Below, one piece after another: positions 2,174 through 62,225 of a DNA stretch of 64,000 bases; positions within the stretch are counted from its first letter, which is position 1, and the number at the start of each line of letters is the position of its first letter. The position numbers and the translations under genes were made by a program. The DNA is from an uncultured virus (IMG/VR IMGVR_UViG_3300021511_000004). Lineage: Duplodnaviria; Heunggongvirae; Uroviricota; Caudoviricetes. Where the stretch lies: IMG/VR virus record IMGVR_UViG_3300021511_000004; one strand, given 5' to 3'. Under the pieces are notes generated by a model. It saw only the letters and a list, made by a program, of their open reading frames with translations, searched no databases and was not told the origin of the DNA.

Positions 2174-3625
2174 TTAAAAATCAGCGTTCATCATTTTTGT
2201 CATTTCATCTATCTGTTTATTCAGATGACCGGCAAAATATAATGTATGAAACCTAATCATTCCGCTTTCAATTTTTGAAAGAGGTATTCCTCCCAATCTT
2301 CTTCCTGTTAAAATATCACAGAAATCAACTCGGGATACTCTTCCAATAAAATGACAAAGCAATGCATGTGGTAATATTTTTGTATTGAATCCAAAGAAGT
2401 TTTGTGTCTCCTGTTGAACTTCAAGGTAATCATGAACTGCTTTTATTTTATATGTTGTGCTAATAGAAGGACTTTTCAAAGGAAAGTAATTCAACAATAC
2501 GAATAAATCCTTATAATCAGTTCCAAATACTTTTCTAAATAAAACTTGTGTATAAACTGAAATCACTGCAGCATGTTCAGGTGATAATGTCTTAAAATGA
2601 TGATAAGGAATTTGTGTCATGCGTGATAAAACTGGATATACTAAAGTTTCGGATAATGGAGAAATAAAGTCGATGTTCGATGCCCGCTCGTGAAACTCCA
2701 CTATAGTTTCATCGCTTTCAACTTTCTCCGTTGTTATTGTTGTTTGTTTTTGAAGCAACTCATATATTTTTTCAAATGCAATACCTTTCAACCTACCAAG
2801 AGTATCATTATAACTATATGTCTTTAAGTTATCAGTATTGATCCCTTGTATATCTTCGGTTGAAATACTATCATCATAAACAATTGACCCCTTATAAACT
2901 GAGCGTAAAAACCATTTAACCGATTCGTCAATTACACCAACAAAATAAGTAATGGGATTTTTAGTTAATTCACACAAGATCAAAATATTATTCATAATGA
3001 AATTAAATATTTCAATTATGTGAACTCCAATGTCTTTACCTTGCACATTTTTAATATATTCCCACATAAATCTATCTGTCAGATTATATCTAAATGTTTT
3101 GGTTTTAATAACATCATAGATCTTTCTTACGATGTCTGATTCTACAACCGTTGATGCCAATTGATTATAGACATCTCGATGTAGTTGTTGCCCTAATTTA
3201 AGTTTTGCATTATTTGAAATAACTGAATAAATCTTAAGATAACAGGACAATCTAATAATCTGCTCAATTTCTTCTGACTCGAATAAAATAGAATTTTTCT
3301 TAACTTTTGTTCTATCAACGAATTGAGAATAATCGAACTTTAATTCGTCAAGGTAACTATCAACATACTTCTTGATTTGAGGGATACTGTCAACGACAGC
3401 TTTTGGTCTTTTAGTTTCATCATGACAATCGGTTAGTAAATCCATGAACCAGCTGCTGAATTCTTCTCCATTATATTCAGCAACCCTCTCAATGAAATTA
3501 GTTACAATAAAATATTTATTTGTAACTGAAGAAGGAGAGAGGAAGAGTTTTATTGGATCACGATCCTCAACTATGACTAACCATTCTTTGGGCCCATTCT
3601 GCTCGATTCTTAACAAAATAAGCAA
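2174..3625 (-). CDS. Hypothetical 483-aa protein (candidate RNAP specificity/sigma-like subunit)
   Basis: Long helical-looking ORF with GGAGG RBS and TTG start (3625 or 3616); function inferred only from size and proximity to beta'. Confidence 0.6.
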   Translation of the reverse strand: MLILLRIEQNGPKEWLVIVEDRDPIKLFLSPSSVTNKYFIVTNFIERVAEYNGEEFSSWFMDLLTDCHDETKRPKAVVDSIPQIKKYVDSYLDELKFDYSQFVDRTKVKKNSILFESEEIEQIIRLSCYLKIYSVISNNAKLKLGQQLHRDVYNQLASTVVESDIVRKIYDVIKTKTFRYNLTDRFMWEYIKNVQGKDIGVHIIEIFNFIMNNILILCELTKNPITYFVGVIDESVKWFLRSVYKGSIVYDDSISTEDIQGINTDNLKTYSYNDTLGRLKGIAFEKIYELLQKQTTITTEKVESDETIVEFHERASNIDFISPLSETLVYPVLSRMTQIPYHHFKTLSPEHAAVISVYTQVLFRKVFGTDYKDLFVLLNYFPLKSPSISTTYKIKAVHDYLEVQQETQNFFGFNTKILPHALLCHFIGRVSRVDFCDILTGRRLGGIPLSKIESGMIRFHTLYFAGHLNKQIDEMTKMMNADF

Positions 3626-3645
3626 CCTCCTTTAATTTTTTGATT

Positions 3646-3717
3646 GGAGCCCAAAGTTAGAGAGCGGTGTCTAACAATGGGCGCCGTGGAAACTCCGGAA
3701 TATATCGGAGAATTCCA
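3646..3717 (-). promoter_or_regulatory. Structured 5' leader (two tandem hairpins)
   Basis: Stems (+ strand) TGGAA/TTCCA with CTCCG/CGGAG (3687-3717) and GCCCA/TGGGC with GTTAGA/TCTAAC (3646-3685); GC-rich in an AT-rich genome. Confidence 0.5.
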
Positions 3718-3745
3718 AACGTAACAACCTTATTCATCATTAGTT

Positions 3746-3760
3746 ATTAATATATATAGA
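3746..3760 (-). promoter_or_regulatory. Putative phage promoter TCTATATATATTAAT (copy 1)
   Basis: Identical 15-mer at 3746, 10875 and 40371, each upstream of a - strand gene. Confidence 0.6.
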
Positions 3761-3768
3761 TATGAAAT

Positions 3769-4677
3769 TTATAATTGAGTAGACTCTTCTATGAAAGAAT
3801 CAAATTTCTGTCTTGTAATAACAGATGTACCAGGTTTTGTTGCTGTATATCCTGCACATTTATTTGCAATTTTAGCTGCTTCAACTGCAGAACTTCCCAT
3901 AGAAAGACAAATTGCCATAACTGATATTACAACATCTCCACATCCAGAAACATTATATATATCTAAAGGTTCTTCTGTAACAATATTCCATGATTGATTG
4001 AAGTCGTAAAGAGACATTCCCTTACTTCCTTTAGTTTCTAAAATATATTTTACATTCCTCAAATTATACTGTGATGATAATTTCATTACTGTCCATTCTT
4101 TTTCATTTGGAGTAATCATAAAAGCACCATCATATAAAAATCCATTGATTGGTTTTGGATCAACTATAAATGAAGTGTTCTGCTCTCTTAAAAAGTCCAT
4201 CAATTCTTTAGTGATCATCCCCTTTGCATAATCAGAAACAATTATTATATCATACTTGCTTCTACCAACTTTTTTGAATTGTTCAATAGCTATTTTATCA
4301 TCTATTTTCTCAGTGTGTTCTCTATCAATCCTTATCATTTGAACTTGACGTTCATCTGCAATTATTCTTTCTTTTACAGTTGTTTCTTTTGAACCATAAA
4401 TAAGTATATCACCTGCGCCGATACGATCTAGTTCATCTTTAATTCGTTCACCATTATAATCCATATGAATTGATGCTAAACAATCAACTTGTGATCCTAA
4501 TTGTCTAATATTCCTTACAACATTACCACAACCACCAAGCGAACAATATTCTTCTTTTACATGAACTATAGGCACTGGTGCCTCGGGAGATATTCTTGAT
4601 ACATCACCCACCACATATTTGTCAAGCATAATATCACCAACAACTAAAATTTTTACATGTTCGATTCTTTTCTTCAT
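3769..4677 (-). CDS. rfaE: D-glycero-D-manno-heptose-7-phosphate kinase (RfaE/HldE domain I, PfkB family)
   Basis: VVGDIMLDKY, RISPEAPVP, SDYAKG, VDPK, ITPNEKE, VSGCGD. Confidence 0.92.
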   Translation of the reverse strand: MKKRIEHVKILVVGDIMLDKYVVGDVSRISPEAPVPIVHVKEEYCSLGGCGNVVRNIRQLGSQVDCLASIHMDYNGERIKDELDRIGAGDILIYGSKETTVKERIIADERQVQMIRIDREHTEKIDDKIAIEQFKKVGRSKYDIIIVSDYAKGMITKELMDFLREQNTSFIVDPKPINGFLYDGAFMITPNEKEWTVMKLSSQYNLRNVKYILETKGSKGMSLYDFNQSWNIVTEEPLDIYNVSGCGDVVISVMAICLSMGSSAVEAAKIANKCAGYTATKPGTSVITRQKFDSFIEESTQL

Positions 4678-4704
4678 ATAACACCACCTTTCAAAAATTT
4701 AGGC

Positions 4705-4760
4705 AAAAAAAGCGGGGGGAGCCGCTGAAGCACTAAGAGTCTCACCGCCCACCCCACTTT
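4705..4760 (-). terminator. GC-rich hairpin plus T-tract (terminator or small RNA 3' end)
   Basis: Minus strand AAAGTGGGG...CCCCGCTTT long imperfect stem, or AGCGG-CTCCCC-CCGCT, followed by a T-run. Confidence 0.55.
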
Positions 4761-4837
4761 AAAAACATTAGCGTCTCGGTCTATGGAGGAACTAATATTT
4801 TTATTTTGTTCTAAGTACGGTTAAAACCGACCGGGAA

Positions 4838-5362
4838 CTATTTGTCAACAAATAAAAGTATAACTCGTCTGTTTTGGTGGTGTGTCATTTCTGGCAGTAG
4901 TAATGTTTTACCGAATCCTTTAAGAGACACAATCCTTTCGGCAGGAACACCTAATTCAATAAGATAATTTTTTACAGCCTTAGCCCGATTTTCCGACAAT
5001 GCTTGATTATAGTTATTTGAACCAAATTTATCGGTATGCCCTTCTAATGCCAAAAGTTTAGAATGTGTATTCATTTGAGCTGCTATTTTTTCCAAAATTT
5101 CTTGTGCAGCTGCATCAATATTATATTTATCGAAATCGAAAAGAACTATTCCATCAAGCACAACAATTTTAGCTACTGGTATTACCGGCGCTTTAACAAC
5201 TTTAGCTATTTTTGTTGGTTCAGGTTCAGGTTTAAGTTCTTCTTTTTTATCTTTAACCATAGCAGCGGTAGTAATAATTGCCGCAGCTGCTAAAGCAATT
5301 ACTGGAGTTTTCATAGCAAAATGTAATGCAGAACTACTAACTCCTTTTATTCCATCATACAT
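4838..5362 (-). CDS. OmpA-family peptidoglycan-binding protein
   Basis: VLFDFDK, EGHTDKFG..YNQALSENRA..V..YL, GFG, NRRV; hydrophobic Ala-rich N-terminal segment and Pro-rich linker. Confidence 0.9.
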   Translation of the reverse strand: MYDGIKGVSSSALHFAMKTPVIALAAAAIITTAAMVKDKKEELKPEPEPTKIAKVVKAPVIPVAKIVVLDGIVLFDFDKYNIDAAAQEILEKIAAQMNTHSKLLALEGHTDKFGSNNYNQALSENRAKAVKNYLIELGVPAERIVSLKGFGKTLLLPEMTHHQNRRVILLFVDK

Positions 5363-5830
5363 TTAATTCCCTCCTTTTTTCTTCCAATCTCCGCCGAAAG
5401 AGTATTGTAAAAACAATACAACACATGTATCCCTACCGATAGGGCTGTTATGTCTGGTATAATCATAAAATTCTCCACGGACGCCTACATCTATTCCGCC
5501 CCAATCATTAATACCTAACTTTAATGGAGTTTTTACTTTTGCACCAACAAACAATGCTACTTTATTGTCCCAATGGTCATAGGTGTTATCACTTTGTACA
5601 CCATATAAACCAACAAAGGTGTTGAAAGTTGATTTCTTCCAATGAAACCAATCAACTCCTTGTTCGAGATATCCGTTAAATTTAATGACATCTTCTTCAT
5701 CACAATCGCTGGCAGTGAATGACCCCCAGGCTAAAAATGGATATCCTTCCGGTTCGGCTGATGCGTTTCCTACAAATACACCAACAATCAAACAAACAAC
5801 AAACAACAAACTTAATGTAACTTTCTTCAT
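5363..5830 (-). CDS. Exported outer-membrane beta-barrel-like protein
   Basis: Signal peptide (MKK-hydrophobic-ASA); amphipathic aromatic-rich strands (GYLEQGVDW, NTFVGLYG, DVGVRGEFY, LFLQYSFGGDW). Confidence 0.6.
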   Translation of the reverse strand: MKKVTLSLLFVVCLIVGVFVGNASAEPEGYPFLAWGSFTASDCDEEDVIKFNGYLEQGVDWFHWKKSTFNTFVGLYGVQSDNTYDHWDNKVALFVGAKVKTPLKLGINDWGGIDVGVRGEFYDYTRHNSPIGRDTCVVLFLQYSFGGDWKKKGGN

Positions 5831-5847
5831 AACATGGTTCTCCTTTT

Positions 5848-6624
5848 CTATTTTATTTTTAACGCATTTGATAAAGTTAATACTTCTACATTTTTCTTAA
5901 TAATATATTTCACAATCTGTTCTAACTTTTTAATATCATACTCATATCGTTCAATTTTGCCTCCTTCCTTAACGACATGTAAAAGAAACACTAACCATGT
6001 TTTATTTTTAATTGCTAAATCAATTATCTTTTTAGCCTCATTAACTGTTGTTGATCCTTTTAATTCAAAAACAGAAATATAAAATGGATCTTTAATTATA
6101 TTTAAACCATTTGTATTAACAGCATAATCTACATCCCATGCTGTTCTATGCGATTGAAATCTTTCTTTGATAAATTTTATTACTCTATTATCAAAATCAC
6201 CATAAGGAGTAGAAATTGACGTTGGATTGAACCCATGTTCTTTTAAATATCTTATTGATTCATCTAATTCAAAAATAATTGTTTCATCAGTAAGTTTTGT
6301 CAAATATGGATGTGCATGTGTATGTGAACCTATTTCCCATCCATTTTTAAACAAAGTATTTATTTGATCCCAATTCATATGAAAATTATTGGCATTTCCG
6401 GTCACTCGTGTTATTATATATGCAGTACCTTTAATACCATATTTTTTAAATAATGGTAATACATTTTCAACATGAGATATATGACCGTCATCAAAAGTAA
6501 AACTAACTATGGGTTTGGATTTACTCACATCTTTAGTAAAAGATATACCATTCATCGTAACTATTAACATCATCAATACAAATACAAATACAAATACAAA
6601 TACAAATACAAATAGTTTTTTCAT
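5848..6624 (-). CDS. Polysaccharide deacetylase (CE4/NodB), N-terminally membrane anchored
   Basis: TFDDG, WEIGSHTHAH, PYG and LLH motifs; N-terminal hydrophobic (FV)n segment. Confidence 0.9.
   Translation of the reverse strand: MKKLFVFVFVFVFVFVLMMLIVTMNGISFTKDVSKSKPIVSFTFDDGHISHVENVLPLFKKYGIKGTAYIITRVTGNANNFHMNWDQINTLFKNGWEIGSHTHAHPYLTKLTDETIIFELDESIRYLKEHGFNPTSISTPYGDFDNRVIKFIKERFQSHRTAWDVDYAVNTNGLNIIKDPFYISVFELKGSTTVNEAKKIIDLAIKNKTWLVFLLHVVKEGGKIERYEYDIKKLEQIVKYIIKKNVEVLTLSNALKIK
6575..6614. repeat. Hexanucleotide microsatellite (AATACA)6+AATA
   Basis: Perfect tandem repeat encoding the FVFVFVFVFVFV membrane segment of the deacetylase. Confidence 0.9.
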
Positions 6625-6635
6625 AATTTTCTCCT

Positions 6636-6722
6636 TTATATGCCCACTAAATAGAAAAAATAGATTAATGGGATATTTAATATTAAAAATACCAAATTAT
6701 ATAATATTATATATTCTTTCAT
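6636..6722 (-). CDS. 28-aa single-pass membrane peptide (not in ORF track)
   Basis: MKEYIILYNLVFLILNIPLIYFFYLVGI*; fills the gap between GT2 and deacetylase; AAGGA RBS lies in the GT2 3' end. Confidence 0.6.
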   Translation of the reverse strand: MKEYIILYNLVFLILNIPLIYFFYLVGI

Positions 6723-6726
6723 TTTT

Positions 6727-7842
6727 TTAATGTCCTTTATTCCATATAGATAGCGGTTCTTTTTTAATCCATTCTCTCCATAAAGACCTCCAAAATATTA
6801 CCATATTTACTGGTCTAATTATAAAAAATGATGGAACAGATGTTATAACTTTCCACACCATTTTTACTTGAAATCCTTTAATAATTGTAAAAGTAAAAAT
6901 AACCAACAAACCTATTAAAATATATAGCAATAGTGCAATTACTATATTTTGTATCATCAAAAATATTACTATCGGTAAAGTGAATGGAGAAATTATTCCT
7001 TCTAAAAGATACCAATATATAAACAATCTAATTTTTTTATTTTTATGAAAGTTATTTTTATGTATAGAAATATTTTGAAGAAATCCTCTATACCATCTAT
7101 CAATTTGATTTACAAATATTTTAAAATTTGGCGGGTCATATGGATAACAATAAGCATCCTGAACGCAATAAATACGATATCCATTTAATATAAGTTTCCA
7201 TGTTAAATCCATATCTTCTGCTATACTTATAGATTTAAATCCACCCATTTCTTTAACCAAATTAGTTCTAAAAACAGAAAAACAACCAGATGATACTAAA
7301 ATAGCACCCATATTATTTTGTCCAGCTTTAAAAAGACTTTGATAAAACATATATTCAATAAATCTACCACGTTCCCATATAGTTTCAATTTTTGCAGGAA
7401 TAACAAATCCACAAACGGATACTGTAAGTATATCATTAAAATATGGTAAAGTTTTTTCTATTGCTTTAGAATCAAGAGATGTATCAGCATCAATCGTAAC
7501 AAATAAATCAGTATTAATATATCCTTTTTCAAGAGCATACTGTTGACATGTTGATTTTGTCCCTTGATTTTTATCGGTTCTAATAACTGTTACTCCCATT
7601 TCAGAAGCGATCTTCCCAGTATTATCTTGAGAACAATCATCAACTACAACGATTTTGTCTATTGATATGGATTGATTTTGGATACTTTTGATGGTTTTAG
7701 CAATAAAGCCTTCTTCGTTGTAAGCAGGAATTATGACACAAATAGTATACTTTTTAGTTGGTTGGGTGGCAAATTTTGGCTTCAAGCCAAGCCACCACCT
7801 CCAATTAAATATTTTTTTAATCATGTAACTGTTTCTTTGCAC
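6727..7842 (-). CDS. Processive GT2 polysaccharide synthase (PgaC/IcaA/CesA-like)
   Basis: PAYNE, VVDDCSQD, DAD, AED and QIDRW (D,D,D,QxxRW signature); C-terminal transmembrane helices. Confidence 0.9.
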   Translation of the reverse strand: MQRNSYMIKKIFNWRWWLGLKPKFATQPTKKYTICVIIPAYNEEGFIAKTIKSIQNQSISIDKIVVVDDCSQDNTGKIASEMGVTVIRTDKNQGTKSTCQQYALEKGYINTDLFVTIDADTSLDSKAIEKTLPYFNDILTVSVCGFVIPAKIETIWERGRFIEYMFYQSLFKAGQNNMGAILVSSGCFSVFRTNLVKEMGGFKSISIAEDMDLTWKLILNGYRIYCVQDAYCYPYDPPNFKIFVNQIDRWYRGFLQNISIHKNNFHKNKKIRLFIYWYLLEGIISPFTLPIVIFLMIQNIVIALLLYILIGLLVIFTFTIIKGFQVKMVWKVITSVPSFFIIRPVNMVIFWRSLWREWIKKEPLSIWNKGH

Positions 7843-7864
7843 ATTAAATTCCTTTCAATATTTT

Positions 7865-7940
7865 AATATGCAACCCGACTATCTCATTGAGATTCGTGGC
7901 TTTCCGTCCTTCAATCACTCAAAGTTTGGCTCTGGTTTAA
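7865..7940 (-). ncRNA. Cyclic di-GMP-I (GEMM) riboswitch
   Basis: Minus strand AGAGCCAAACTTTGA-GTGA-TTGAAGGACGGAAAGCCACGAATCTCAATGAGATAGTCGGGTTGC. It shows P2 with a GNRA loop, the GAC-GG-AAAGCC junction with CC/GG covariation, P3 ATCTC/GAGAT and the terminal GGGTTGC; G20 equivalent at 7930 and C92 equivalent at 7870. Confidence 0.88.
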
Positions 7941-7963
7941 ATGTTCTTTAATAATTGTCGTTT

Positions 7964-8146
7964 TTAGGGATAAGATAAAATATAAACTCCATTAGATAAG
8001 GTTAACTTTCCTCCAGAAAAAGTTGTTATTTTATCTACTTTCATATAGAGAGGTGCTACTGCGGGCATATGAATAACAAAATCTATATGTGATGTTGCTA
8101 TCATAGCAGTTAATAGTAATAAAATAGTAAATTGTTTAATTATCAC
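7964..8146 (-). CDS. Small hypothetical protein with hydrophobic N-terminus
   Basis: 60 aa; GTGA overlap with the upstream stop. Confidence 0.5.
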   Translation of the reverse strand: MIIKQFTILLLLTAMIATSHIDFVIHMPAVAPLYMKVDKITTFSGGKLTLSNGVYILSYP

Positions 8147-9216
8147 AACATGTTAACATCCTTTTCATTTAAATATATTTTATTGATTTTAATACACATT
8201 TCATCAATTTTCACGGCTTCTGGATTATCTGGAAGAATACTATCTTTAAGTATTTCTTCTAGTTCATCATTCACTTTCTCAAATTTTTCCATTAATTGTT
8301 CAAATGTGTATATTCCATTTTTGATTGCTAATAAATGTTCTGCGTCTGGTCTTGGAAAAGTAATTTTTCCTGTCGTCATTAATTCTTGACATTCACTGAC
8401 CAAACGATAAAGATGTAATCCATGTTTTGTATCGTAGCCAAACTTGGCTTCTAGTTTAGCACGATATGGATTTCTATTTTTTAACCAATTTTGATAATGT
8501 TGCCATTGTACTAGAGCTGAACCATATGCTTTTTCTTTTTCAAGTGCCAGCATTATGTTATCGTTAAATGGAACAATCTCTTTTACAGCATCAAAATTCA
8601 AATTAGTTGTACTTTTAATAATGGCTTTATAATTATGAGTTTTATTTAGTTCAAACAGCTCATCTTTTAAGATATGGTATCTCCCTATTTGTTGTAAGTA
8701 CGCTGCTATAATTTCGTTGAATGCTCCAATCTGTGATTTTGATAAATAAGATTTATCATTACTAGGCATTCCAAAGTCTTCTCTTACAGGTTTTTTCTTG
8801 GGAGGGTGTAATAACCACGCTCTGTGATGTTTTATTCTTTTCATTTGTGCAAATGCGTAACCTGAAAAAGTATCCTTCGCTTTATTTGATAAAAATAAAT
8901 CTCTATTCCTAACGATCATTTCCCATTCAGGAGATGATTTTATCATACGCTTAGAAGGAATAAATAAATACTCAATAATATTTGGATTACACTTTAATGC
9001 AAATTGAAAAAAGGCTTTCATTTCATGATACATTGTATCGCTTATTTTATCCTCTACCTTAAAGCAGTTCCTAAGGAAGCCAAACATATATTCTTTAGGG
9101 AGAAGAAACACTCCTCTTGTATCTACATCTGAGTCTGGAGTATTAGTTCCATAGAGATGGCTGCCAGTTACAAATGCTGATAATAGTTTAGCTCCTTTCG
9201 GCAGTTGGATTGACAT
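8143..9216 (-). CDS. Pol-beta-superfamily nucleotidyltransferase (Nuc-transf/YcgL/RlaP-like)
   Basis: GSHLYGTNTPDSDVDTRGVF, KCNPNIIEYLF, GYDTKHGLHLYRL. Confidence 0.85.
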   Translation of the reverse strand: MSIQLPKGAKLLSAFVTGSHLYGTNTPDSDVDTRGVFLLPKEYMFGFLRNCFKVEDKISDTMYHEMKAFFQFALKCNPNIIEYLFIPSKRMIKSSPEWEMIVRNRDLFLSNKAKDTFSGYAFAQMKRIKHHRAWLLHPPKKKPVREDFGMPSNDKSYLSKSQIGAFNEIIAAYLQQIGRYHILKDELFELNKTHNYKAIIKSTTNLNFDAVKEIVPFNDNIMLALEKEKAYGSALVQWQHYQNWLKNRNPYRAKLEAKFGYDTKHGLHLYRLVSECQELMTTGKITFPRPDAEHLLAIKNGIYTFEQLMEKFEKVNDELEEILKDSILPDNPEAVKIDEMCIKINKIYLNEKDVNML

Positions 9217-9232
9217 TATTCAGTTCCTCCTT

Positions 9233-10567
9233 CTATACATCTTTTATTATTTTTGTTAGATGGGCTTTATCATTTAAATTTGGAAATTCTAATATAGTAT
9301 CCAGAAGAAACTTTTTAATTTTGCCTATTTCTGGTCCAGGTTTTAATCCAGATATTTCCATAATATCTTTACCATCAATAGCTAATTTATCAAACCTATT
9401 TTCAGCATTAGTATTTAAAGCTTTTTCAATTCTTGCAAAATCTGCTTTAACACCTTGATAGGGAAATGGTCCTTTTATAATATTAGCTTTAGAGTCTGCA
9501 AGTTTTAATCTATACAAATCTCTAAAATCAATATCATATTTATTCAATTTACTAACTAATCGCCTGATTGATTTTTCAGTTGAAAAAGTACGCATATGAA
9601 GTCTTATAAGAGTTGATATATATTCAATCTCTTTTTTTGAGAAGGCTAGTTTTTCTAATTCGTCTTTGACTAAATATTTACCTTCAATTTCATGGCCAGT
9701 AAATTTAACATCTTTAGTTTTTGGATTATATCTACATGAGGGAGGTTTTCCAACATCATGTAAATATGCTGCTAATTTTATTAATGGATATTTTGTTGAG
9801 ATATAATCTCCTGCTAATAAAGAGTGTGTAATAATCTCCTCTTTGTGATGTTTTCCGTGGACATCAAAATAATAACAACAATCCAAAGACGGAAAGATGT
9901 ATTGTAAAACATCAATTTCATGCAATGCATTAAAGAACACGCTTGCATATCTAGCTTTCATTGCCTTTAAAATTTCAATTCTTATTCTTTCAGGAGTAAC
10001 ATATTTTTCAACTAAATACCCCATATTTTTTAATGATTCTTTTGTTGCTGGATCAAATATTCCGTCGATAACTGCTAAGAATCTACATGCTCTTATGATT
10101 CTATTAGGATCTTCGTATATTCGATCCCTTGCATTTCCAACAAATTTAATCTTTCTTTTTTCAAGATCATACCTTCCTTCATATGGATCAATAATCTCTC
10201 CGGTGAATTGACAAAAGGCCATTGCATTAATTGTTAGATCTCTTCTAGCAAGATCTTCAAGTATAGTTTTTACTTCTATGACTTGAACATCTTTATCGCT
10301 AAGACCTTTATATACGTCTTTTCTAAATGTGGCAACCTCAATTCCATCAACAAAAATAACCTTGAAGTATGTTCCTCCTCTTGCTAATTTATGTCCTTTA
10401 AACAGGTTTTCGATTTGACTTGCATTGGCTGAAGTTGCAATGTCTATATCAGATGCAATTTTGCCATCTAATAAATCTCTTATTGCACCCCCTACTATGT
10501 AAGTATCGTATCCAAAATCACATAGTTTTTGTATAATATAAGTTGGTGTAGCTTTCATGGGAACCAA
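9233..10567 (-). CDS. cca: CCA tRNA nucleotidyltransferase / poly(A) polymerase with HD domain
   Basis: VGGAIRDLL, DIDIAT, EVATFR, DLARRDLTINAMA, EDPNRIIRACRF, ERIRIE, LHDVGKP. Confidence 0.9.
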   Translation of the reverse strand: MVPMKATPTYIIQKLCDFGYDTYIVGGAIRDLLDGKIASDIDIATSANASQIENLFKGHKLARGGTYFKVIFVDGIEVATFRKDVYKGLSDKDVQVIEVKTILEDLARRDLTINAMAFCQFTGEIIDPYEGRYDLEKRKIKFVGNARDRIYEDPNRIIRACRFLAVIDGIFDPATKESLKNMGYLVEKYVTPERIRIEILKAMKARYASVFFNALHEIDVLQYIFPSLDCCYYFDVHGKHHKEEIITHSLLAGDYISTKYPLIKLAAYLHDVGKPPSCRYNPKTKDVKFTGHEIEGKYLVKDELEKLAFSKKEIEYISTLIRLHMRTFSTEKSIRRLVSKLNKYDIDFRDLYRLKLADSKANIIKGPFPYQGVKADFARIEKALNTNAENRFDKLAIDGKDIMEISGLKPGPEIGKIKKFLLDTILEFPNLNDKAHLTKIIKDV

Positions 10568-29108: not shown

Positions 29109-29591
29109 TTACATTTCTCCAGCATCTTCTTCAACTTCATCAGTTATTCCACGATTTGGAATACGGCTTATCATTCCAGTTCCTTCATTTACTATCTTTC
29201 CTTTAAAAAATATATAATGTTTTCGTTTATAATTAGATTTTTTTACAACCCCAGTATTAATGAGATGATAAAGACCTTTTACTTTACGACCTTTAAAATC
29301 TATTATAATATGACTAGGACCAAATTTTTGAACCATACAGATTCCATCATCCCATTTTTTTAATCGTCCTGCACCATACCCAGCTTTTATTGTTCCAATA
29401 AACAGAGCCTCTTTTTCTGAATGGTCATGTGTTCTAACGGCTAAAACTTTTTCACCTGGTTTTAAAGGAACACCTTTTCGTACAGCAAATGATGCCCAAT
29501 TCTTTGACTTAGGCATTCTAAATCTGACATCCCAATGTAGTCGAGCTTTTTTAGCATCATGTTCAACTATAATAAATTTTGATTTGGTCAT
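29109..29591 (-). CDS. LigD-type 3'-phosphoesterase (PE) domain protein
   Basis: IVEHDAKKARLHWDVR, SFAVRKG, LAVRTHDH, GYGAG...WDDG. Confidence 0.85.
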   Translation of the reverse strand: MTKSKFIIVEHDAKKARLHWDVRFRMPKSKNWASFAVRKGVPLKPGEKVLAVRTHDHSEKEALFIGTIKAGYGAGRLKKWDDGICMVQKFGPSHIIIDFKGRKVKGLYHLINTGVVKKSNYKRKHYIFFKGKIVNEGTGMISRIPNRGITDEVEEDAGEM

Positions 29592-47807: not shown

Positions 47808-48851
47808 ATGAGTAACGAAGTGAAAAGCGAATTAAAAAAGAAAGATGAGGTAGTTTGTATCGGTCTTGACGTAGGCACGATGAATTTGGTTTGTGCTAGA
47901 TCTGACTTAAATAAAGTCAAAATGACAAGAAATGTCTTTCTACCATTAGATGATGATGATATTCAAATTTCAGAGTTAAGTGATATTAATTATATTCAAG
48001 ATGAAGATGAAAAATTATTTATCATTGGAGCAGATGCTTTTAAATATTCAAATATTTTTGGTCAGAAAGTTTCTCGTCCTATGGAAAAGGGGTTAATATC
48101 ACCCAGAGAAATTTCAGCTATTGATATTTTGACTCTTATGTTGAAAGACTTACTTGGAGACGTTAAAGATAAAGAGTCATATTGTTCATTTTCAATACCA
48201 GCTGAAGCAATTGATGGTGGGCGTTCAATTACATATCATGAGAATGTCTTTGCAAGAATTTTAAAGAGTTTGGGAATTAATTATACTTCAGTGAATGAAG
48301 CAATGGCAATTATTTATTCAGAATGTGCTAAAGAAAAGTTTTCAGGAATTGGTATTAGTTTTGGTGCTGGTATGGCAAATGTTGCTATGGCATATAAAGG
48401 TATTCAAGCACTAACATTTTCAACTACAAGAGCAGGAGATTGGATTGATAATGAAACTGCTTCTTCACTTGGGATGGTTGCAAATAGAGTAACTAGTATC
48501 AAAGAAAAATATATGCAACTTTCTGGAGAAGTTGAGATAAAAAATAAAAAAACAAAAAGAGTTTTAGAGGCTCTTTATTATTATCATAAAGCATTGATAG
48601 ACTACACTGTTAAGAAGATCATTAAAGAGTTTACTAATAAAGTTGATATTGAAATTGATGAACCTGTTCCTATAATAATTAGCGGTGGAACAAGCATACC
48701 AAAAGGATTTGTTGAATTATTCAAAAATGTTGTATCTGGATATGATTTACCATTTGAAGTCTCAGAAATTCGCAGAGCAGAAAATCCTCTAACAGCTGTT
48801 GCAAATGGTCTTCTAATAAGAACTATGTCAGATGTTAAGGGAATGAAATAA
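47808..48851 (+). CDS. Actin-like ATPase (MreB/ParM/FtsA/MamK superfamily)
   Basis: Phosphate-1 IGLDVGT, RPMEKG, NEAMA, phosphate-2 ISFGAG, AGDWID, KE, adenosine IISGGTS, AVANG. Confidence 0.85.
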   Translation: MSNEVKSELKKKDEVVCIGLDVGTMNLVCARSDLNKVKMTRNVFLPLDDDDIQISELSDINYIQDEDEKLFIIGADAFKYSNIFGQKVSRPMEKGLISPREISAIDILTLMLKDLLGDVKDKESYCSFSIPAEAIDGGRSITYHENVFARILKSLGINYTSVNEAMAIIYSECAKEKFSGIGISFGAGMANVAMAYKGIQALTFSTTRAGDWIDNETASSLGMVANRVTSIKEKYMQLSGEVEIKNKKTKRVLEALYYYHKALIDYTVKKIIKEFTNKVDIEIDEPVPIIISGGTSIPKGFVELFKNVVSGYDLPFEVSEIRRAENPLTAVANGLLIRTMSDVKGMK

Positions 48852-50446: not shown

Positions 50447-51733
50447 ATGTTGGCAGAATCGAAACGAGGAATATGGAAAGAAGAACAAATTAAAAAAGAT
50501 TTAAAACCCATTCATAGATCAACTTTAAGACAGTTTGGTCTTAGAGTTCAAGATATGAATCATGTAGATAATTTGGAGGAGTTGAGAAAATCTCCTCCAA
50601 ATATTGTTATTGCTCAATCTCAAAAGCATTTTAGATTTATGCAGAATTACTTTAAGGAACAGACCCTAAAGAAAAAGGGTAAATATGTTATGGGTCTTGG
50701 AGTTTTTCAACAACTAGTCTACAACCAATCAAATAGCAAGTATAAAATGCTTAAACCAGCTCCAATGCGTTTTAAGAATATGTATAAACCGTATATTGGC
50801 CAGAACGCCGATAATAAAACAATTTTAATTTTTAGAACAGGAGGTATTGGAGATCTTCTATTTATACAACCCAACCTTATATATCTTAAAAATAAATACC
50901 CTTCATGTTATATTAAATTTGCCTGTGGTCCGCAATATCAACCAATGGTTGAAAATTGGGATTGTGTTGATGAAGTATTGGATTTACCATTTCCATATAA
51001 ACATTTACAAGAATCAGATTATCATATGTTATTTGAGGGTGTTATTGAAAGATGTAAAGAAGCTGAAACAAAAAATGCTTTTAATCTCTTTTCAGAATGG
51101 CTTGGTTTAGATTTACCTGATAATTTATTACTTCCTAGACAGGAACCAAAAGAAGAACTTATGGATGAATGTTTTAAAATATTGAAAGAGTGGAATCTTG
51201 AAAATGACTCCTTTGTTCTAATGCAGTTGAGGGCAAGCTCTCCAATTAGAACACCAAGACATGAATTTTGGGCTAAAATTATAGATGAGTTAAACGAAAG
51301 AGGTCACCGTGTTCTCTTAACCGATAATCCAAGACAAGCAAATAATGTTGATGAATTTATCAATACTTTAAAGAAACCAGAAATGACTTTCAATTTTTGT
51401 CAATATTCAAAATCAATTGCATATACGATAGCTTTAACAAGTTTATCTAAAGCAACATTTGCTACCGATTCAGCATTGGGGCATATTGCTGCATCTATGG
51501 ATATTAAATGTTTTGGTGTATTCGGTCCATTTCCTGGATTTATTAGATTAAAAACATATCCTAAAGCTGCTTGGGTTGATGCAAAAAAAGATTGTGCTCC
51601 ATGTTTTATGCACAGTCAAACTCCATGTTCACAGTCATTTAATGGATATAGTCCATGTTATGATGAATTAATAGAAACAGATGAAAAACTGAAAGACCTT
51701 ATTGATAAATTTGAGGAGTTACTGAACCGATGA
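50447..51733 (+). CDS. GT9 (ADP-heptose transferase-like) glycosyltransferase
   Basis: IFRTGGIGDLLF, TDSALGHIAASM, GVFGP, CAPC. Confidence 0.8.
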   Translation: MLAESKRGIWKEEQIKKDLKPIHRSTLRQFGLRVQDMNHVDNLEELRKSPPNIVIAQSQKHFRFMQNYFKEQTLKKKGKYVMGLGVFQQLVYNQSNSKYKMLKPAPMRFKNMYKPYIGQNADNKTILIFRTGGIGDLLFIQPNLIYLKNKYPSCYIKFACGPQYQPMVENWDCVDEVLDLPFPYKHLQESDYHMLFEGVIERCKEAETKNAFNLFSEWLGLDLPDNLLLPRQEPKEELMDECFKILKEWNLENDSFVLMQLRASSPIRTPRHEFWAKIIDELNERGHRVLLTDNPRQANNVDEFINTLKKPEMTFNFCQYSKSIAYTIALTSLSKATFATDSALGHIAASMDIKCFGVFGPFPGFIRLKTYPKAAWVDAKKDCAPCFMHSQTPCSQSFNGYSPCYDELIETDEKLKDLIDKFEELLNR

Positions 51734-52566
51734 TTAAAATTTTCATGACTGTAAGAAATCGTCTTGCGATTACGAAAAAATGTATTGCAGCGATACAAAA
51801 ACATTCTACAATTCCTTATCAACTTTATGTATATGATAATCAAACAAATTATAAATTAGATGAACATTTTAAATATTTTTCAAAATTATACAATAAGGGA
51901 TTGGTTACACAAGTAGTATTTAATACTAATGCATCCACATTTAATGCTTTTAGTAAAGCAGCATCGTGTAATATGTTTGGATTATTGCACCAACAAGATC
52001 CAGAGAAAAATAAGTATTCGTTTTTATTAATATTAGATAATGATATAATCCTTACCCCTAAGTGGGATCAAAAATTAGCAGCTGCATGGAAGCATGTAAC
52101 AAAAAATAATTTAAATAATATTAAAGTTATAGGACAATCTCCAGGAGGGGTTAAATATAAAAAGGAAGTTGTAAAGATAAATGATAAACTTTCTGGAAGA
52201 ACTGGCAAACTAGGAGGGTCTGGTTTGTGGAGTGTTAGACCTAATTTCTTTGAAGACGTTGGATTACTTGATTTATCTAAATTGGTTGGTTTTGATAAAA
52301 AACACGATCAACATTATTGGAGACTTTTAGAACGATCAACCGGAGGCAAACCTTATATACTTGCATTGAGTCATAAATTGGGAATTCATTGTGGAAAAAT
52401 GTCAGGATCTGTTTGTAATATATTAACTAGAAGTCGAAGTAAAAATGATAATCAGAAGTTAGACCTTATTAAATTTGAAAATGCAGAAAATAGAATAGAT
52501 AAGTTGAAATTTGATGAATTTTTCAAATCAATATATAATGATAAAGCATTGTTAGCAGATTGGTAA
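51730..52566 (+). CDS. GT-A fold (GT2) glycosyltransferase
   Basis: IFMTVRNR..ITKKC, VYDN, LILDNDI. Confidence 0.75.
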   Translation: MIKIFMTVRNRLAITKKCIAAIQKHSTIPYQLYVYDNQTNYKLDEHFKYFSKLYNKGLVTQVVFNTNASTFNAFSKAASCNMFGLLHQQDPEKNKYSFLLILDNDIILTPKWDQKLAAAWKHVTKNNLNNIKVIGQSPGGVKYKKEVVKINDKLSGRTGKLGGSGLWSVRPNFFEDVGLLDLSKLVGFDKKHDQHYWRLLERSTGGKPYILALSHKLGIHCGKMSGSVCNILTRSRSKNDNQKLDLIKFENAENRIDKLKFDEFFKSIYNDKALLADW

Positions 52567-52580
52567 TAGAAGGGATTTAA

Positions 52581-53099
52581 ATGGAAGTATTGCATGTAAC
52601 ACCAACCAAAAATATTAAGAATATTATGAAAAGTAAAATACTTAGAAGTAAACCTATTCTTTCTCAATATGATGACGTAATGAATTATGAATATGGATCT
52701 GATTATGATAAGGAGAAAGGATTAGTATTTGGATTCCCAGAAGATATATACAATCGTGATAAAATAATTAAAGATTTTGCTTATTGGAAAACTTGGGGAG
52801 ATGTTAGAAATAGATTTTTATTGAAATATGATGATGAAGAATTTATAAAACTACAAGAAGTAGGCACAAAAATATTTTCACATATTAAACTAAAATCAAC
52901 ACATTTTTCTATTTTACTTTTAGAGATTAAATACGAACCAGTTTTTGATAGATATAAACATCAACAGACTGCTGATATGAGTTCATATTGGACAGATATG
53001 GAAACCAGATATGAGCATGATGATAAACCTCTAGTTCTAATAAATTATGATATTGAATTAAAGAACATAAAAAGAATTGTGGGACAGTTCAATCTATAG
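52581..53099 (+). CDS. Hypothetical protein
   Basis: 172 aa; LHVT..NI..I N-terminus only weakly recalls ADP-ribosyltransferase-fold proteins. Confidence 0.6.
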   Translation: MEVLHVTPTKNIKNIMKSKILRSKPILSQYDDVMNYEYGSDYDKEKGLVFGFPEDIYNRDKIIKDFAYWKTWGDVRNRFLLKYDDEEFIKLQEVGTKIFSHIKLKSTHFSILLLEIKYEPVFDRYKHQQTADMSSYWTDMETRYEHDDKPLVLINYDIELKNIKRIVGQFNL

Positions 53100-53149
53100 T
53101 AACAAAGGAAGATAAAATAAATACATTATTGCAAATATAAAGGGTGATT

Positions 53150-54109
53150 ATGTCAAAACCAGACGCTATATTAATGGGTCCATTTGTGGGTGAATTATAT
53201 TGGGAAACAGCTAGATTTGCGCCCATGCTTCCACAAATGATCAGAACAGAATATAAAGATAGAGATATGAAATATATCGTTTTAACAAGGCAAGAGCGTT
53301 TTGATTTATATGGTAAATTTGCAGATATTTTAGTTCCGTTGAGGATACCAGGAGATTATGAAAAACATCAACCAAATTGTTTTAGATTAAATGGTTTGAA
53401 ACCCCCACAATATTTGAAAATCATTAATGATTTTCATGCAAAATACAAAGGAAGGTATCATATAATTAAACATATTTATCCTGATGTTACAAAGGCAAGA
53501 TATGTAAATAAGAATCAATTTCCCCGAAAAAAGATGCATTATAATTATCAACCAAGAGAAGAAAATTATAGTATAGTGAAGTCTTATTTGCCAAATTCTG
53601 GAAAGCCATTGGTTGTTTTATCTCCAAGATATCGAAATGGTTTTAAAAGAAACTGGAAATATTGGCCTGAGTTTTATAATAAATTATCACAAGATGGGGA
53701 TTTGATGAAAGATTTTCACTTTATTATATGTGGTAAAAAAGGTGAATATATACCTGATAAGAAGAAAAGATTTTTAGATTTAAATGATATGGTGTTGGGA
53801 GAAAACTCTTCTCTTGTTGGTTTATTATTAGTTGTGTTAGAAAATACGTTTTTTACATTTGGTTCACAGAGCGCAATTCCAAATATGTCTCTGTTATATA
53901 ATATAGATGTTTTGGAATTTGGTTGTCAAAAGACATTACACACAAGAACTTATAATATAAAAAATACACCCATAACATTTATAGTGGACACGAAATATGA
54001 TATTCCAACAAATAAAATATTTCCGCAGTTTAAAAAATTGTTATATAAGAAAAGGAGAAAACAAGATGCAACAAACAAAGAATGTTTGGATTCAAACAAA
54101 AAAACATGA
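53150..54109 (+). CDS. Putative GT-B glycosyltransferase (GT9-like)
   Basis: GPFVGELYWE, VVLSPR...RNW..W, FGSQSA. Confidence 0.6.
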   Translation: MSKPDAILMGPFVGELYWETARFAPMLPQMIRTEYKDRDMKYIVLTRQERFDLYGKFADILVPLRIPGDYEKHQPNCFRLNGLKPPQYLKIINDFHAKYKGRYHIIKHIYPDVTKARYVNKNQFPRKKMHYNYQPREENYSIVKSYLPNSGKPLVVLSPRYRNGFKRNWKYWPEFYNKLSQDGDLMKDFHFIICGKKGEYIPDKKKRFLDLNDMVLGENSSLVGLLLVVLENTFFTFGSQSAIPNMSLLYNIDVLEFGCQKTLHTRTYNIKNTPITFIVDTKYDIPTNKIFPQFKKLLYKKRRKQDATNKECLDSNKKT

Positions 54110-54302
54110 AATAGAAGCTGTTAAAAGACAGTTAATTGAATATGATTATGCTGGATCATATGGTGGATCAATTGATCTTATGAAAGTTAATAATTTAATT
54201 GATGGATCTATAATTGAAATTTTAAAATTAGAAAAAGAGAATGAGGTATTAAAACAAGAACTTAATAAATTTATAGATGCAGCAGCAAAAGATGAAAGCT
54301 AA
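54066..54302 (+). CDS. Small hypothetical coiled-coil protein
   Basis: ATG 54066 with AAGGAG RBS. Confidence 0.5.
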   Translation: MQQTKNVWIQTKKHEIEAVKRQLIEYDYAGSYGGSIDLMKVNNLIDGSIIEILKLEKENEVLKQELNKFIDAAAKDES

Positions 54303-55059
54303 AGCATTTTTATTTGGTCCATTTATAGGAGAATTGTGTTGGGAGTTTTTTAGATTTGCTCCCTATGCAATCTACTTAAAGAAAAATAATCCTGGTTCGA
54401 GATTAATTGTACTAACTCGATCATCAAGGTTTGATTTATATGGTCAATATGCTGATATTTTACTTCCATTGAGATTAAAAAATGATTTAGAATTAAAAAG
54501 GGATTCTTTTAAGCTAAATGACTATAAAGAAGAGCATTATTATACAATTGCTAAATATTTTAAAGCTAAGTTTAGAAAACGATTTCATATTATAAGTCAT
54601 AATTATCCAGATGTTAGATTATGGAGATATAAAGCGAAGTGGCAATTTCCAAGATGTAAAATGGATTATGATTTTTTACCCAGAGAAGAAAATAAAGAAG
54701 TTGCAAGGAAATGTATGGGTAGTAATATAGGAATAGTTGATAGCGTTGCAACTAAAAAAAGAATAAATAGAGAAGATGTTATTACTACATTTGATTTAAT
54801 GTGCCGAATAACTAATTTTACCACTGACAACCCTACAAGTCTTGGTAGTATAATGGAATGTATTAAATTATCAGAATTTGTTATAGGTGATATAAGATAT
54901 GATACTTCACATTTAGCTCTTTTGTTGGGTACTACATTGATACATGTTGAGTCTTCTATAAAAGAGGATTTTATAAAGTTACTAAATCCTCTTGGAACTC
55001 CTATGATTATATCTGATAATATAGTAAAGGGAATTGATATATATGAGAATAATTTTTGA
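54292..55059 (+). CDS. Putative glycosyltransferase, paralogue of 53150..54109
   Basis: GPFIGELCWE..RFAP, IVLTR..RFDLYG..ADIL.PLR, QFPR.KM.Y...PREEN shared; SHLALLLG. Confidence 0.6.
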   Translation: MKAKAFLFGPFIGELCWEFFRFAPYAIYLKKNNPGSRLIVLTRSSRFDLYGQYADILLPLRLKNDLELKRDSFKLNDYKEEHYYTIAKYFKAKFRKRFHIISHNYPDVRLWRYKAKWQFPRCKMDYDFLPREENKEVARKCMGSNIGIVDSVATKKRINREDVITTFDLMCRITNFTTDNPTSLGSIMECIKLSEFVIGDIRYDTSHLALLLGTTLIHVESSIKEDFIKLLNPLGTPMIISDNIVKGIDIYENNF

Positions 55060-56038: not shown

Positions 56039-56853
56039 TGAATAAAGTGGGAGATATTTTATCTAAACTCGAAAATTGTATAAAGTATAGAATACCATTC
56101 AGTCATATTCGTTTTGGGGATGGAGGAATAAAATTTATTGATTCTATATTAAATGGCAATTTTGCTCAGATGAATATAATTGTTGAAAAGGAAGGGCTTC
56201 CAGCATCAAAAGTAGTTGAAATATTTGAGCTGTGGGGTTATTATGCAAGGCATGCTGATTTTATTGATAGTCCTGAGGTATATTTTAATGATACATTTTG
56301 GCCACGAGTAAAGAAAGCAGGAAAACCAATCAATGAAGCAACAAAAATTAAGATGATGGAATGGATAGAATTATACAATAGATCTGAATTCGATAATAAA
56401 AATTATTGTAACCCCGAATCTAATTATTTAATGGTGATAAGACGGCCTGATTGTAAAAATATACTGGATATAATGAAGGATAAAAAGGTTGCTTTAATTA
56501 CAGCAAGACCTGAAGTTAAAAGCATATTAAGAGATTATTCTGTTGATATTATAAAAATTGTAGGTCATTATAAGAATCAATATAAAAATTCATATCATGA
56601 AGTAATGGAAATAATAAAACATACAGCAAGTAACTATGACTTTTGGATGGTTGCTGCTGGAGAACTTGGACGTATATATACAGGTTCAATAAAAGAATGT
56701 TCTGGTAGAGCGATTGATATTGGCTTCATTGTTGAATTTTGGTTAGATGGTTATTTACACCCCAGGATTCAACCTTATTTGACAAATAGCATTTATAATA
56801 GATTTGAACTTGCATTGACGGATGAAGGACTGAAGTTTTTGGAGTATATATAA
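56035..56853 (+). CDS. GT-D fold (DUF1792-like) glycosyltransferase
   Basis: FSHIRFGDG, VAAG..G, AIDIG. Confidence 0.7.
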   Translation: MMNKVGDILSKLENCIKYRIPFSHIRFGDGGIKFIDSILNGNFAQMNIIVEKEGLPASKVVEIFELWGYYARHADFIDSPEVYFNDTFWPRVKKAGKPINEATKIKMMEWIELYNRSEFDNKNYCNPESNYLMVIRRPDCKNILDIMKDKKVALITARPEVKSILRDYSVDIIKIVGHYKNQYKNSYHEVMEIIKHTASNYDFWMVAAGELGRIYTGSIKECSGRAIDIGFIVEFWLDGYLHPRIQPYLTNSIYNRFELALTDEGLKFLEYI

Positions 56854-56854
56854 A

Positions 56855-57433: not shown

Positions 57434-57435
57434 AT

Positions 57436-61462: not shown

Positions 61463-61464
61463 TT

Positions 61465-62217: not shown

Positions 62218-62225
62218 GATATAAA

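Follow-up and report, generated by a model that had tools for sequence, protein, structure and literature searches.

The DNA analysed here (the window) is a stretch of 64,000 nucleotides (nt) from an uncultured virus of the class Caudoviricetes (IMG/VR record IMGVR_UViG_3300021511_000004). On the minus strand it shows an aptamer of the cyclic di-GMP (c-di-GMP)-I riboswitch class, directly upstream of a gene encoding a family 2 glycosyltransferase (GT2), which is followed by genes encoding a polysaccharide deacetylase, a secreted protein of 155 amino acid (aa) residues and an OmpA-family protein. The locus is probably a four-gene phage operon led by a functional c-di-GMP-I aptamer, which would act as a translational ON switch and read the c-di-GMP of the host.

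Identification of the aptamer

Comparison of the whole 64-kb window with the 4227 families of Rfam 15, using cmscan, gave a single match at gathering level: RF01051 (c-di-GMP-I), on the minus strand from 7940 to 7866, with 54.2 bits against a cut-off of 35, an E-value of 7.9e-8 and an alignment that spans model positions 1-87. The initial annotation of this DNA, made from the letters alone, had proposed a c-di-GMP-I riboswitch in a phage and named the RF01051 covariance search as its check. The search supports the proposal, as do the phage-type genes of the window and the genes shared with a related contig, both described below.

The GGC variant of the family, RF03167 (c-di-GMP-I-GGC), scores 53.4 bits on the same element in the E-value mode of cmscan, under its own cut-off of 59; across the aptamers of the window and of two related contigs (loci L111 and L112) it gives 53-55 bits, about equal to the RF01051 scores. 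Position 47 is A7903 in the window, and A is also found in L111, L112 and two viral contigs of IMG/VR (L009 and L016), whereas the RF03167 consensus shows G. Because the RF03167 score stays below the cut-off and position 47 is an A, the element is assigned, at the sequence level, to the c-di-GMP-I aptamers with a canonical pocket and a short P3, and not to the GGC variant. A 3',3'-cyclic GMP-AMP (cGAMP) riboswitch (GEMM-Ib) is likewise not indicated, since the distinguishing residue is an A at position 20 and the window has G7930. Finally, a covariance model of our own for the short-P3 subtype, R1, gave 96 bits on the window and widened the match to 7859-7945. R1 is insensitive to aptamers with a long P3 (the canonical aptamer of locus L125 reaches only 15.8 bits), so the counts obtained with it are lower bounds.

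Structure of the aptamer

The landmarks named in the initial annotation, which are the C21-G46 pair, the GUGA loop, the P3 strands AUCUC and GAGAU, G20 (7930) and C92 (7870), were each located in the minus-strand sequence (Table 1). The 21-46 pair is C-G, reversed from the strongly conserved G-C of the consensus. The GUGA tetraloop that closes P2 is also present in L111 and L112. P3 is short: the distal stem of the RF01051 consensus is deleted in the cmscan alignment, its receptor-like internal loop is missing from the window, and the distal part of the hairpin is formed by AUCUC (7893-7889) and GAGAU (7885-7881). G20, C92 and A47, which we take to be a ligand-contact position, all stand at their model places. 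A shifted P1 of 5 bp could close the element in the window. The same places in L111 read AUUAA and UUAAU, with one pair changed on both sides in relation to the window, and L112 shows AUAG/CUAU in the canonical register.

Table 1. Features of the riboswitch locus, with positions in the window and the evidence for each.
Feature	Position	Strand	Description and evidence
c-di-GMP-I (GEMM-I) aptamer	7866..7940	-	RF01051; RF03167 below cut-off; R1; covariation
Candidate P1, 5' strand UUUAA	7937..7941	-	pairs with UUAAA 7866-7862; weak, five A-U pairs
G at position 20	7930	-	aligned in RF01051 and RF03167 to the unpaired G that precedes the first pair
P2 hairpin	7909..7924	-	6 bp, 7924-7919 with 7914-7909; GUGA tetraloop 7918-7915
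G45 (7905), G46 (7904), A47 (7903)	7903..7905	-	cmscan alignments; G45 and G46 pair with C22 (7928) and C21 (7929)
P3 hairpin	7872..7901	-	12 bp; bulges A7897 and A7880/G7879; loop AAU 7888-7886
C at position 92	7870	-	model alignments; also within the 5' arm of hairpin H1
Competing hairpin H1	7837..7873	-	12 bp; minimum-free-energy folds
Shine-Dalgarno-like GAAAGGA	7850..7856	-	5 nt before AUG 7844, 7 nt before GUG 7842
Short upstream frame	7821..7844	-	MCKETVT and stop, 8 codons including the stop; out of frame with GT2; three-frame translation
GT2 glycosyltransferase, processive synthase type	6727..7842	-	Pfam Glyco_tranf_2_3, Glycos_transf_2, Glyco_trans_2_3; D,D,D and QxxRW-like QIDRW
Polysaccharide deacetylase, CE4-type	5848..6624	-	PF01522, 92 bits; hydrophobic N-terminus; best NCBIfam match HfsH, below cut-off
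155-aa secreted protein, beta-rich	5363..5830	-	signal-peptide-like N-terminus
OmpA-family peptidoglycan-binding protein	4838..5362	-	PF00691, 78 bits; N-terminal hydrophobic segment
Terminator-like hairpin (4726-4711) and T run	4701..4726	-	5-bp stem with four G-C pairs, then TTTTTTG

Covariation and recurrence of the aptamer

The GT2 protein has 2220 homologues in a large protein collection, many of them flagged Chitin_synth_2. Its close relatives, found by a search with one genome per species, are encoded on three contigs: L111 (88% aa identity), on a contig of 54.5 kb binned with an archaeal metagenome-assembled genome (MAG), L110 (83%), on one of 20.5 kb, and L112 (77%), on one of 4.7 kb. 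Two of them have an aptamer immediately before the GT2 orthologue (53.7 bits in L111 and 54.7 bits in L112, with RF03167 in E-value mode). By contrast, neither the Rfam scan nor R1 found an aptamer before the GT2 gene of L110, despite the 83% identity and the same cassette.

The aptamers of the window, L111 and L112 were aligned with that of L009, a GC-rich viral contig (alignment A3, a small sample with three closely related members out of four). All 80 pair cells of A3 hold standard pairs and 11 of the 20 pairs are altered on both sides. In P2 this is true of all six pairs and in P3 of five out of 12, with 100% of the cells paired in both helices. None of 500 column shuffles reached the observed values of pairing and double change, and when the partners were shifted by one to three columns only 22-50% of the cells paired. 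RNAalifold, run unaided, returned the identical 20 pairs. Both C21-G46 and C22-G45 are C-G pairs in the four sequences, across which G20, A47 and C92 are also invariant. With every P2 pair and five of the P3 pairs compensated, a chance match and decay are excluded for practical purposes in this set of sequences. Since the aptamer recurs in L111 and L112, and the L111 contig shares further genes with the window, the sequences indicate an element retained in a diverged phage lineage and not a one-off acquisition.

Among 80 genome loci with GT2 homologues (L110-L189), at least four show a same-strand upstream aptamer: L111, L112, L114 and L125. A weak R1 match in L128 was discarded as it had no Rfam confirmation. 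No same-strand upstream aptamer was found by regular expression or by R1, which is insensitive to long P3, in 81 metagenome and viral loci with GT2 homologues (L029-L109); L071 contains one R1 match, on the strand opposite to GT2. In IMG/VR, a single-protein search with the GT2 sequence gave no relative, and an alignment search gave one, L029, with 35% identity, in which no aptamer was found. Patterns were also run against the nucleotide sequences of IMG/VR. The pattern made from the three phage aptamers gave three matches, all of them to one unrelated sequence. The pattern for the C21-G46 core gave 28 matches, two of which are real aptamers (L009 and L016), and the canonical core pattern gave at least 118, with at least two (L238 and L249) among the 80 fetched that fit R1 and were confirmed by Rfam.

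The four-gene cassette

The best NCBIfam match of the GT2 protein is PgaC_IcaA (TIGR03937), with 103.4 bits. This lies far below the cut-off of 422, and the protein was therefore not classed as a PgaC/IcaA equivalog but as a related processive GT2. The second gene encodes a deacetylase of carbohydrate esterase family 4 (CE4) type. The 155-aa protein has no match in Pfam, NCBIfam or PHROG. Its AlphaFold2 model has a mean predicted local distance difference test (pLDDT) score of 65.8 and shows seven to eight long strands; Foldseek returned weak matches to OmpG, PagP and the OmpA transmembrane domain, all with E > 0.05 and none at E <= 0.001, and in the ESM Atlas a PagL cluster was found at 0.94, which is not significant. 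From the model, it is possibly a small outer-membrane barrel. Homologues of this protein are encoded in L110, L111, L112 and L114. The OmpA-like protein shows many matches to OmpA, Pal and MotB-type NCBIfam models, all of them below cut-off. Downstream of it, the terminator-like hairpin is the probable end of the riboswitch-led operon; the scan of 3500-7900 found two terminator-like sites where 1.5 are expected, so the site is weak alone.

The same four genes are present in L110 and L111, and in L112 an unknown protein of 356 aa takes the place of the deacetylase. Related genes are also found under c-di-GMP-I aptamers in bacterial loci. In L125, from a Firmicutes MAG, an RF01051 aptamer of 55.4 bits precedes, by some 50 nt, a GT2 gene whose product is 51% identical. 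In a Thermodesulfovibrionales MAG (L114:716-5802), an RF03167-type aptamer of 67.4 bits heads a five-gene operon which encodes a glycoside hydrolase of family 18 (GH18) with an Fn3 domain, a homologue of the 155-aa protein (157 aa), an unknown protein of 199 aa, a GT2 and a deacetylase. The GH18 and deacetylase partners, together with the Chitin_synth_2 flags on many homologues, point to a polymer based on N-acetylglucosamine (GlcNAc). As judged from its gene content, the cassette looks like a compact kit for the synthesis of a GlcNAc-type polymer and its export through a two-membrane envelope.

Start codons and expression platform

The aptamer lies on the coding strand just upstream of GT2 and, as the initial annotation had stated, no terminator separates them: on both strands of 7600-8400 no terminator-like site was found by a scan for sigma-70 and intrinsic-terminator signals, which does not cover the signals of phage polymerases. 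The distance of about 15 nt to GAAAGGA given there is roughly right, the motif starting 13 nt past C92 and 9 nt past the end of the Rfam match. The motif resembles a Shine-Dalgarno (SD) sequence and is kept as GAAAGGA in L111 and as AAAGG in L112; however, its description as the ribosome binding site of GT2 is too simple, because the AUG next to it (7844) is out of frame with GT2 and the codon in frame is GUG 7842. The three closest GT2 homologues start at the position of AUG 7824, and a start at GUG 7842 would add six residues.

AUG 7844 opens a short frame, whose UGA overlaps the GT2 AUG 7824 (AUGA). In L111 the SD-proximal AUG also opens an out-of-frame frame, of 13 codons, with its stop just past the GT2 AUGs, and no SD precedes those AUGs. 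This arrangement suggests termination-reinitiation coupling in L111, and the same possibly applies to the window. As the peptides of the two frames are unrelated, the short frame would be there as a device rather than for its product.

Minimum-free-energy folding of the region predicts the competing hairpin H1, with an energy of -9.8 kcal/mol in context and -9.1 kcal/mol alone. Its 5' arm (7873-7862) takes up the last two nucleotides of P3, G7871 (G91), C92 and the candidate 3' strand of P1; the loop of 13 nt (7861-7849) contains GAAAGGA, and the 3' arm (7848-7837) contains AUG 7844 and GUG 7842. L111 has the same hairpin in its free minimum-energy fold, with -8.4 kcal/mol and a U-G pair replaced by U-A. 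The bound state was modelled by enforcing the aptamer, with the pocket nucleotides unpaired and the 5-bp P1 (7941-7937 with 7866-7862) formed. From the free to the bound model the start-codon hexamer becomes more accessible: its mean probability of being unpaired goes from 0.00 to 0.33 in the window and, in L111, from 0.08 to 0.32. The free fold of the window is 8.1 kcal/mol below the aptamer-enforced fold, a gap that tight ligand binding could cover.

Proposed regulation and alternative explanations

A translational ON switch is the simplest reading of these predicted structures, because H1 overlaps both C92/P1 and the start codons and the aptamer model opens the start. Without ligand, 7873-7862 (the last two nucleotides of P3, G91, C92 and the 3' strand of P1) would pair with 7848-7837 and bury AUG 7844 and GUG 7842. 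Binding of c-di-GMP would hold C92 and P1 in the aptamer and block H1, and translation could begin, either directly at GUG 7842 or via the short frame before it, whose stop overlaps the GT2 AUG. The polymer kit would then be made only in hosts with high c-di-GMP, which corresponds to the sessile, biofilm state.

Several observations weigh against this reading. The SD in the loop of H1 is mostly unpaired in either state (0.87 in the free and 0.65 in the bound model), and the modelled effect is thus limited to the start codons and is moderate. A second, weak hairpin, H2 (-1.7 kcal/mol), also remains able to form over the start codons and some of the SD when the bound state is modelled. L112 has no H1, and its values change from 0.52 to 0.57 for the start and from 0.41 to 0.60 for the SD. 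P1 is mismatched in the window in the register of the Rfam model, its alternative consists of only five A-U pairs, and the reversed C21-G46 pair adjoins the ligand pocket. In addition, the switch is dispensable, as L110 keeps the cassette without the aptamer, and the production of c-di-GMP by the host is an assumption.

Some of these points would equally suit a real c-di-GMP aptamer that acts with another polarity or at another level, as an OFF switch, by Rho-dependent or phage-polymerase termination, or through decay of the messenger RNA. The largely accessible SD, the potential of H2 to occlude both SD and start in the modelled bound state, and the different platform of L112 are all compatible with it, and the window encodes a subunit of a phage-type RNA polymerase, whose termination signals lie outside the terminator scan. 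A transcriptional platform would, however, have to do without any terminator-like element between the aptamer and the start and with little room, given the gap of only 9-13 nt between aptamer and SD. The strong hairpin over C92, kept in L111 with a change that preserves pairing, also argues for the translational ON switch, and c-di-GMP usually turns polysaccharide production on, which weighs against an OFF switch. We regard this alternative as unlikely, though it is the most serious of the competitors.

Regarding the ligand, the presence of G20, C92 and A47 leads us to expect c-di-GMP, which is most likely on sequence grounds. In the Vibrio cholerae aptamer, according to published work, one guanine of the ligand is recognised by G20 along its Hoogsteen edge and the other forms a Watson-Crick pair with C92, and cGAMP-sensing relatives carry an A at position 20 (A14 in Gs1761) (PMC6140456). 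The wild-type V. cholerae RNA, with G20, is reported there to bind cGAMP at about 10 uM and c-di-GMP in the picomolar range, a difference of about a million-fold (PMC6140456). The initial annotation had predicted c-di-GMP over cGAMP from G20 and C92, and both the positions found and these published roles agree with it.

A shifted specificity, for another cyclic dinucleotide (such as 3',3'-cGAMP or a signal of defence systems) or a linear breakdown product, by which the phage would sense something else than the biofilm state of its host, was considered in view of the C21-G46 flip beside the pocket, which is not found in L125, L238, L249, L313, L114, L119 or L071. RF03167 scores as high as RF01051 on this element, and changed or dual specificity is described among natural relatives of GEMM-I (PMC6140456, PMC7266159). 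On the other side stand G and not A at position 20, A and not the GGC-consensus G at 47, C at 92, and the strong discrimination against cGAMP described for the RNA with G20 (PMC6140456). The genes of the cassette are moreover of the kind found under c-di-GMP riboswitches in the bacterial loci L114 and L125. A different ligand is accordingly improbable in our judgement, and c-di-GMP remains the expected one.

The aptamer might also be a passenger that arrived with a host-derived cassette and regulates nothing now. L110 keeps the cassette without it, and the window and the L111 contig place the cassette differently with respect to their shared backbone, as expected for a mobile 'moron'. Nevertheless, three contigs keep the aptamer intact, with a divergence of 12-23% between their GT2 proteins and a much larger one between their backbone genes. 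Every pair is kept with the compensation described above, the pocket is invariant and H1 is conserved in L111; these features indicate purifying selection and make a passenger very improbable. A fortuitous fit of AT-rich intergenic sequence to the Rfam model was rejected: the moderate bit score and the absent distal P3 stem give it no weight against the E-value for the whole window, the recurrence before orthologous genes with covariation and the RNAalifold result.

Phage context and host

The window has 26-34% G+C and two divergent gene blocks. According to Pfam and PHROG, it contains phage-type genes for a fragment of an RNA polymerase beta subunit, a UvsX-like recombinase, a Dda-type helicase and a class I ribonucleotide reductase. 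Further genes encode a clamp-loader-like AAA protein, a gp5-like OB domain (Phage_base_V) followed by a PAAR protein, an amidase, HNH endonucleases and a CCA-adding enzyme (tRNA nucleotidyltransferase). Neither a capsid gene nor a terminase gene could be recognised in the window, and no integrase was seen in the 64 kb. From its phage-type genes, among them those for a baseplate spike, the window looks like part of a large virulent-type phage of a T4/jumbo-like lineage. A blastn search for distant matches of 5300-9300 found none in GenBank phages; UvsX shows no more than 30% identity with any phage in GenBank, and a tblastn search with GT2 gave only matches of 26-29% identity that cover at most 71% of the protein.

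The contig of L111 (G001:C47) has about 20 further genes in common with the region 40.4-56.9 kb of the window, with 34-88% aa identity, and the position of the cassette relative to this shared gene block differs between the two. That contig also encodes QueC, MazG, a dCMP deaminase, RtcB and two tRNAs, and the L112 contig shows a gp32-like gene. DNA words of the window were found in runs labelled as hydrothermal vent metagenomes, with 0.88 of the sampled words present in X4, a run of a separate study; three of the best-matching runs may be the source of the window DNA. No RNA run is listed among those containing window DNA, and the four matching runs examined consist of DNA contigs.

No GGDEF, EAL, HD-GYP or PilZ domain was found among the 82 open reading frames (ORFs) scanned in the window or among 46/68 ORFs of the L111 contig, each of which represents part of a genome. 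As no c-di-GMP enzyme is present among the phage ORFs scanned, the signal would come from the host. The OmpA-like gene, together with an HldE-kinase-like gene and a gene similar to family 9 (GT9) heptosyltransferases, points to a bacterial host with two membranes.

Other genes of the region were also recorded. A glycan cluster at 50447-63998 (+) and 3769-4677 (-), partly shared with G001:C47, encodes a GT9 heptosyltransferase-like protein, a GT1, a GT-D-like protein, three hexapeptide transferases, a methyltransferase, a GT2, a PIG-L deacetylase and a GFO/IDH oxidoreductase. With it stands a gene similar to D-glycero-beta-D-manno-heptose-7-phosphate kinases, under the equivalog cut-off. An actin-like protein is encoded at 47808-48851 (+), with a match to the full Pfam profile Volactin (PF25216) of 241 bits and a homologue of 69% identity in G001:C47. 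RNA-repair-style genes are found at 8143-10567 (-) and 29109-29591 (-) and encode a RlaP nucleotidyltransferase, the CCA-adding enzyme and a LigD 3'-phosphoesterase domain; locus L324 of G001:C47 contains RtcB, HAD_SAK_2, the N-terminal domain of GmrSD and two tRNAs. The spacer of 200 nt between the RlaP-like gene and the aptamer shows, on reading by eye, an open frame of 33 codons at 8002-8103 (-). In L110, a weak match to YrlA (Y RNA-like) at 1159-1266, with 39.3 bits against a cut-off of 69, lies just upstream of an unannotated ORF of 692 aa. Finally, a partial DHHA1-domain protein is encoded upstream of the L112 riboswitch (L112:2-397), about 300 nt away from it; some DHH/DHHA1 enzymes break down dinucleotides.

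Comparison with known systems

The element of the window shares with Vc2 of V. cholerae and the RF01051 family the three-helix junction with P2 and P3, the pocket G20/A47/C92, a GNRA-type P2 loop and a location in the 5' leader of the coding strand. It differs in the C-G pair at 21-46, the short P3, the loop GUGA instead of GAAA, the P1 that is unpaired in the model register and its phage carrier. The short P3 is common to RF03167; however, the aptamer of the bacterial GT2 operon in L114 passes the cut-off of that family and the window does not. The Geobacter GEMM-Ib riboswitches for cGAMP show the same fold and belong to the same family alignment, but have A at position 20 where the window has G.

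The deacetylase cassette resembles PgaABCD of Escherichia coli, IcaADBC of staphylococci and NodC/NodB of rhizobia, in which a processive GT2 with a QxxRW-type motif likewise stands beside a CE4 deacetylase. In comparison with the Pga and Ica systems, the cassette has no PgaA-like porin and no PgaD, and it has the 155-aa protein and the OmpA-like protein instead; the homologous bacterial operon of L114 adds a GH18 to GT2 and deacetylase.

By published account, riboswitches are very rare in phages. A 2017 census reports only two c-di-GMP-I aptamers, in Clostridioides difficile prophages (citing Sudarsan et al. 2008), and two glutamine aptamers, in cyanophages, and concludes that phages rarely use riboswitches (McCown et al. 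2017, PMC5473149). This agrees with the initial annotation, which had mentioned both the rarity and the C. difficile precedent. The C. difficile elements are of the same class and lie on phage-derived DNA of Firmicute prophages (PMC5473149), whereas the window belongs to a putative large T4/jumbo-like lineage, a host with two membranes is indicated, and the cassette that would be regulated is one for a polysaccharide. A literature search, in which most subscription journals were outside coverage, found no c-di-GMP riboswitch reported in a jumbo or virulent phage.

The riboswitch class is thus a known one with an unusual carrier, a phage, and an unusual cargo, a cassette for a polysaccharide of the host envelope. 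An aptamer with compensated pairs is kept in at least three related contigs and heads a polysaccharide cassette rather than a lysis or lysogeny gene. If the proposed function is true, an auxiliary function of the phage would be tied to the biofilm signal of the host, as a case of viral second-messenger sensing. The 155-aa family, which has no annotation, is common to the phage cassette and to c-di-GMP-controlled operons of uncultured bacteria.

More tentatively, and with doubt prevailing, large virulent phages of vents and sediments might sense the c-di-GMP of their hosts and turn on the polysaccharide kit only in sessile ones, so re-coating the infected cell, with the cassette as an undescribed minimal exopolysaccharide secretion system. 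GT2, the deacetylase, the barrel-like 155-aa protein and the OmpA-like anchor would be the components of that system. Re-coating could block superinfection, hide receptors or keep the cell in the biofilm until lysis, and a lytic phage would be taking a lifestyle-dependent decision by means of an RNA sensor.

Distribution of the C21-G46 subtype

The reversed C21-G46 pair was seen in the phage clade, in L009 and L016 (for which the search pattern required it) and in the read-through of environmental contigs. The 21-46 pair is G-C or G-U in the canonical aptamers of L125, L238, L249 and L313 and in the RF03167-type aptamers of L114, L119 and L071. The MAG that contains L112 supplies L313 as one further c-di-GMP-I aptamer, located before a gene for a trypsin-like protease and uninformative on the host. 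No match to the aptamer family was found in any of 14 control genomes, and the nearest sequences found are the uncultured phage contigs, the two GC-rich viral contigs and the Thermodesulfovibrionales MAG; the deltaproteobacterial, Geobacter-type subtype given in the initial annotation stands as a putative assignment. The aptamers of these two IMG/VR contigs (L009:1466-1542, on a contig of 105 kb, and L016:1492-1613, on one of 40 kb) pass the RF03167 cut-off despite the A at 47; that of L009 stands ahead of a HAMP-domain protein.

In runs X6, X7 and X9 (vent, cold-seep and marine-sediment), 30, 10 and 22 contigs, respectively, match only the aptamer core at about 7863-7931, with 80-95% identity, and diverge on both sides; the loose ends past 7909 continue into GCC-AAA and GUGA-type loops. 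Since so many contigs match the core and continue into like loops, the C21-G46/GUGA subtype is, judging from these matches, common in vent, seep and sediment communities. The public runs contain many more aptamers of the subtype and at least one further riboswitch-GT2 relative: one X9 contig, of 1965 nt, also matches the start of GT2, with 185 other letters replacing 174.

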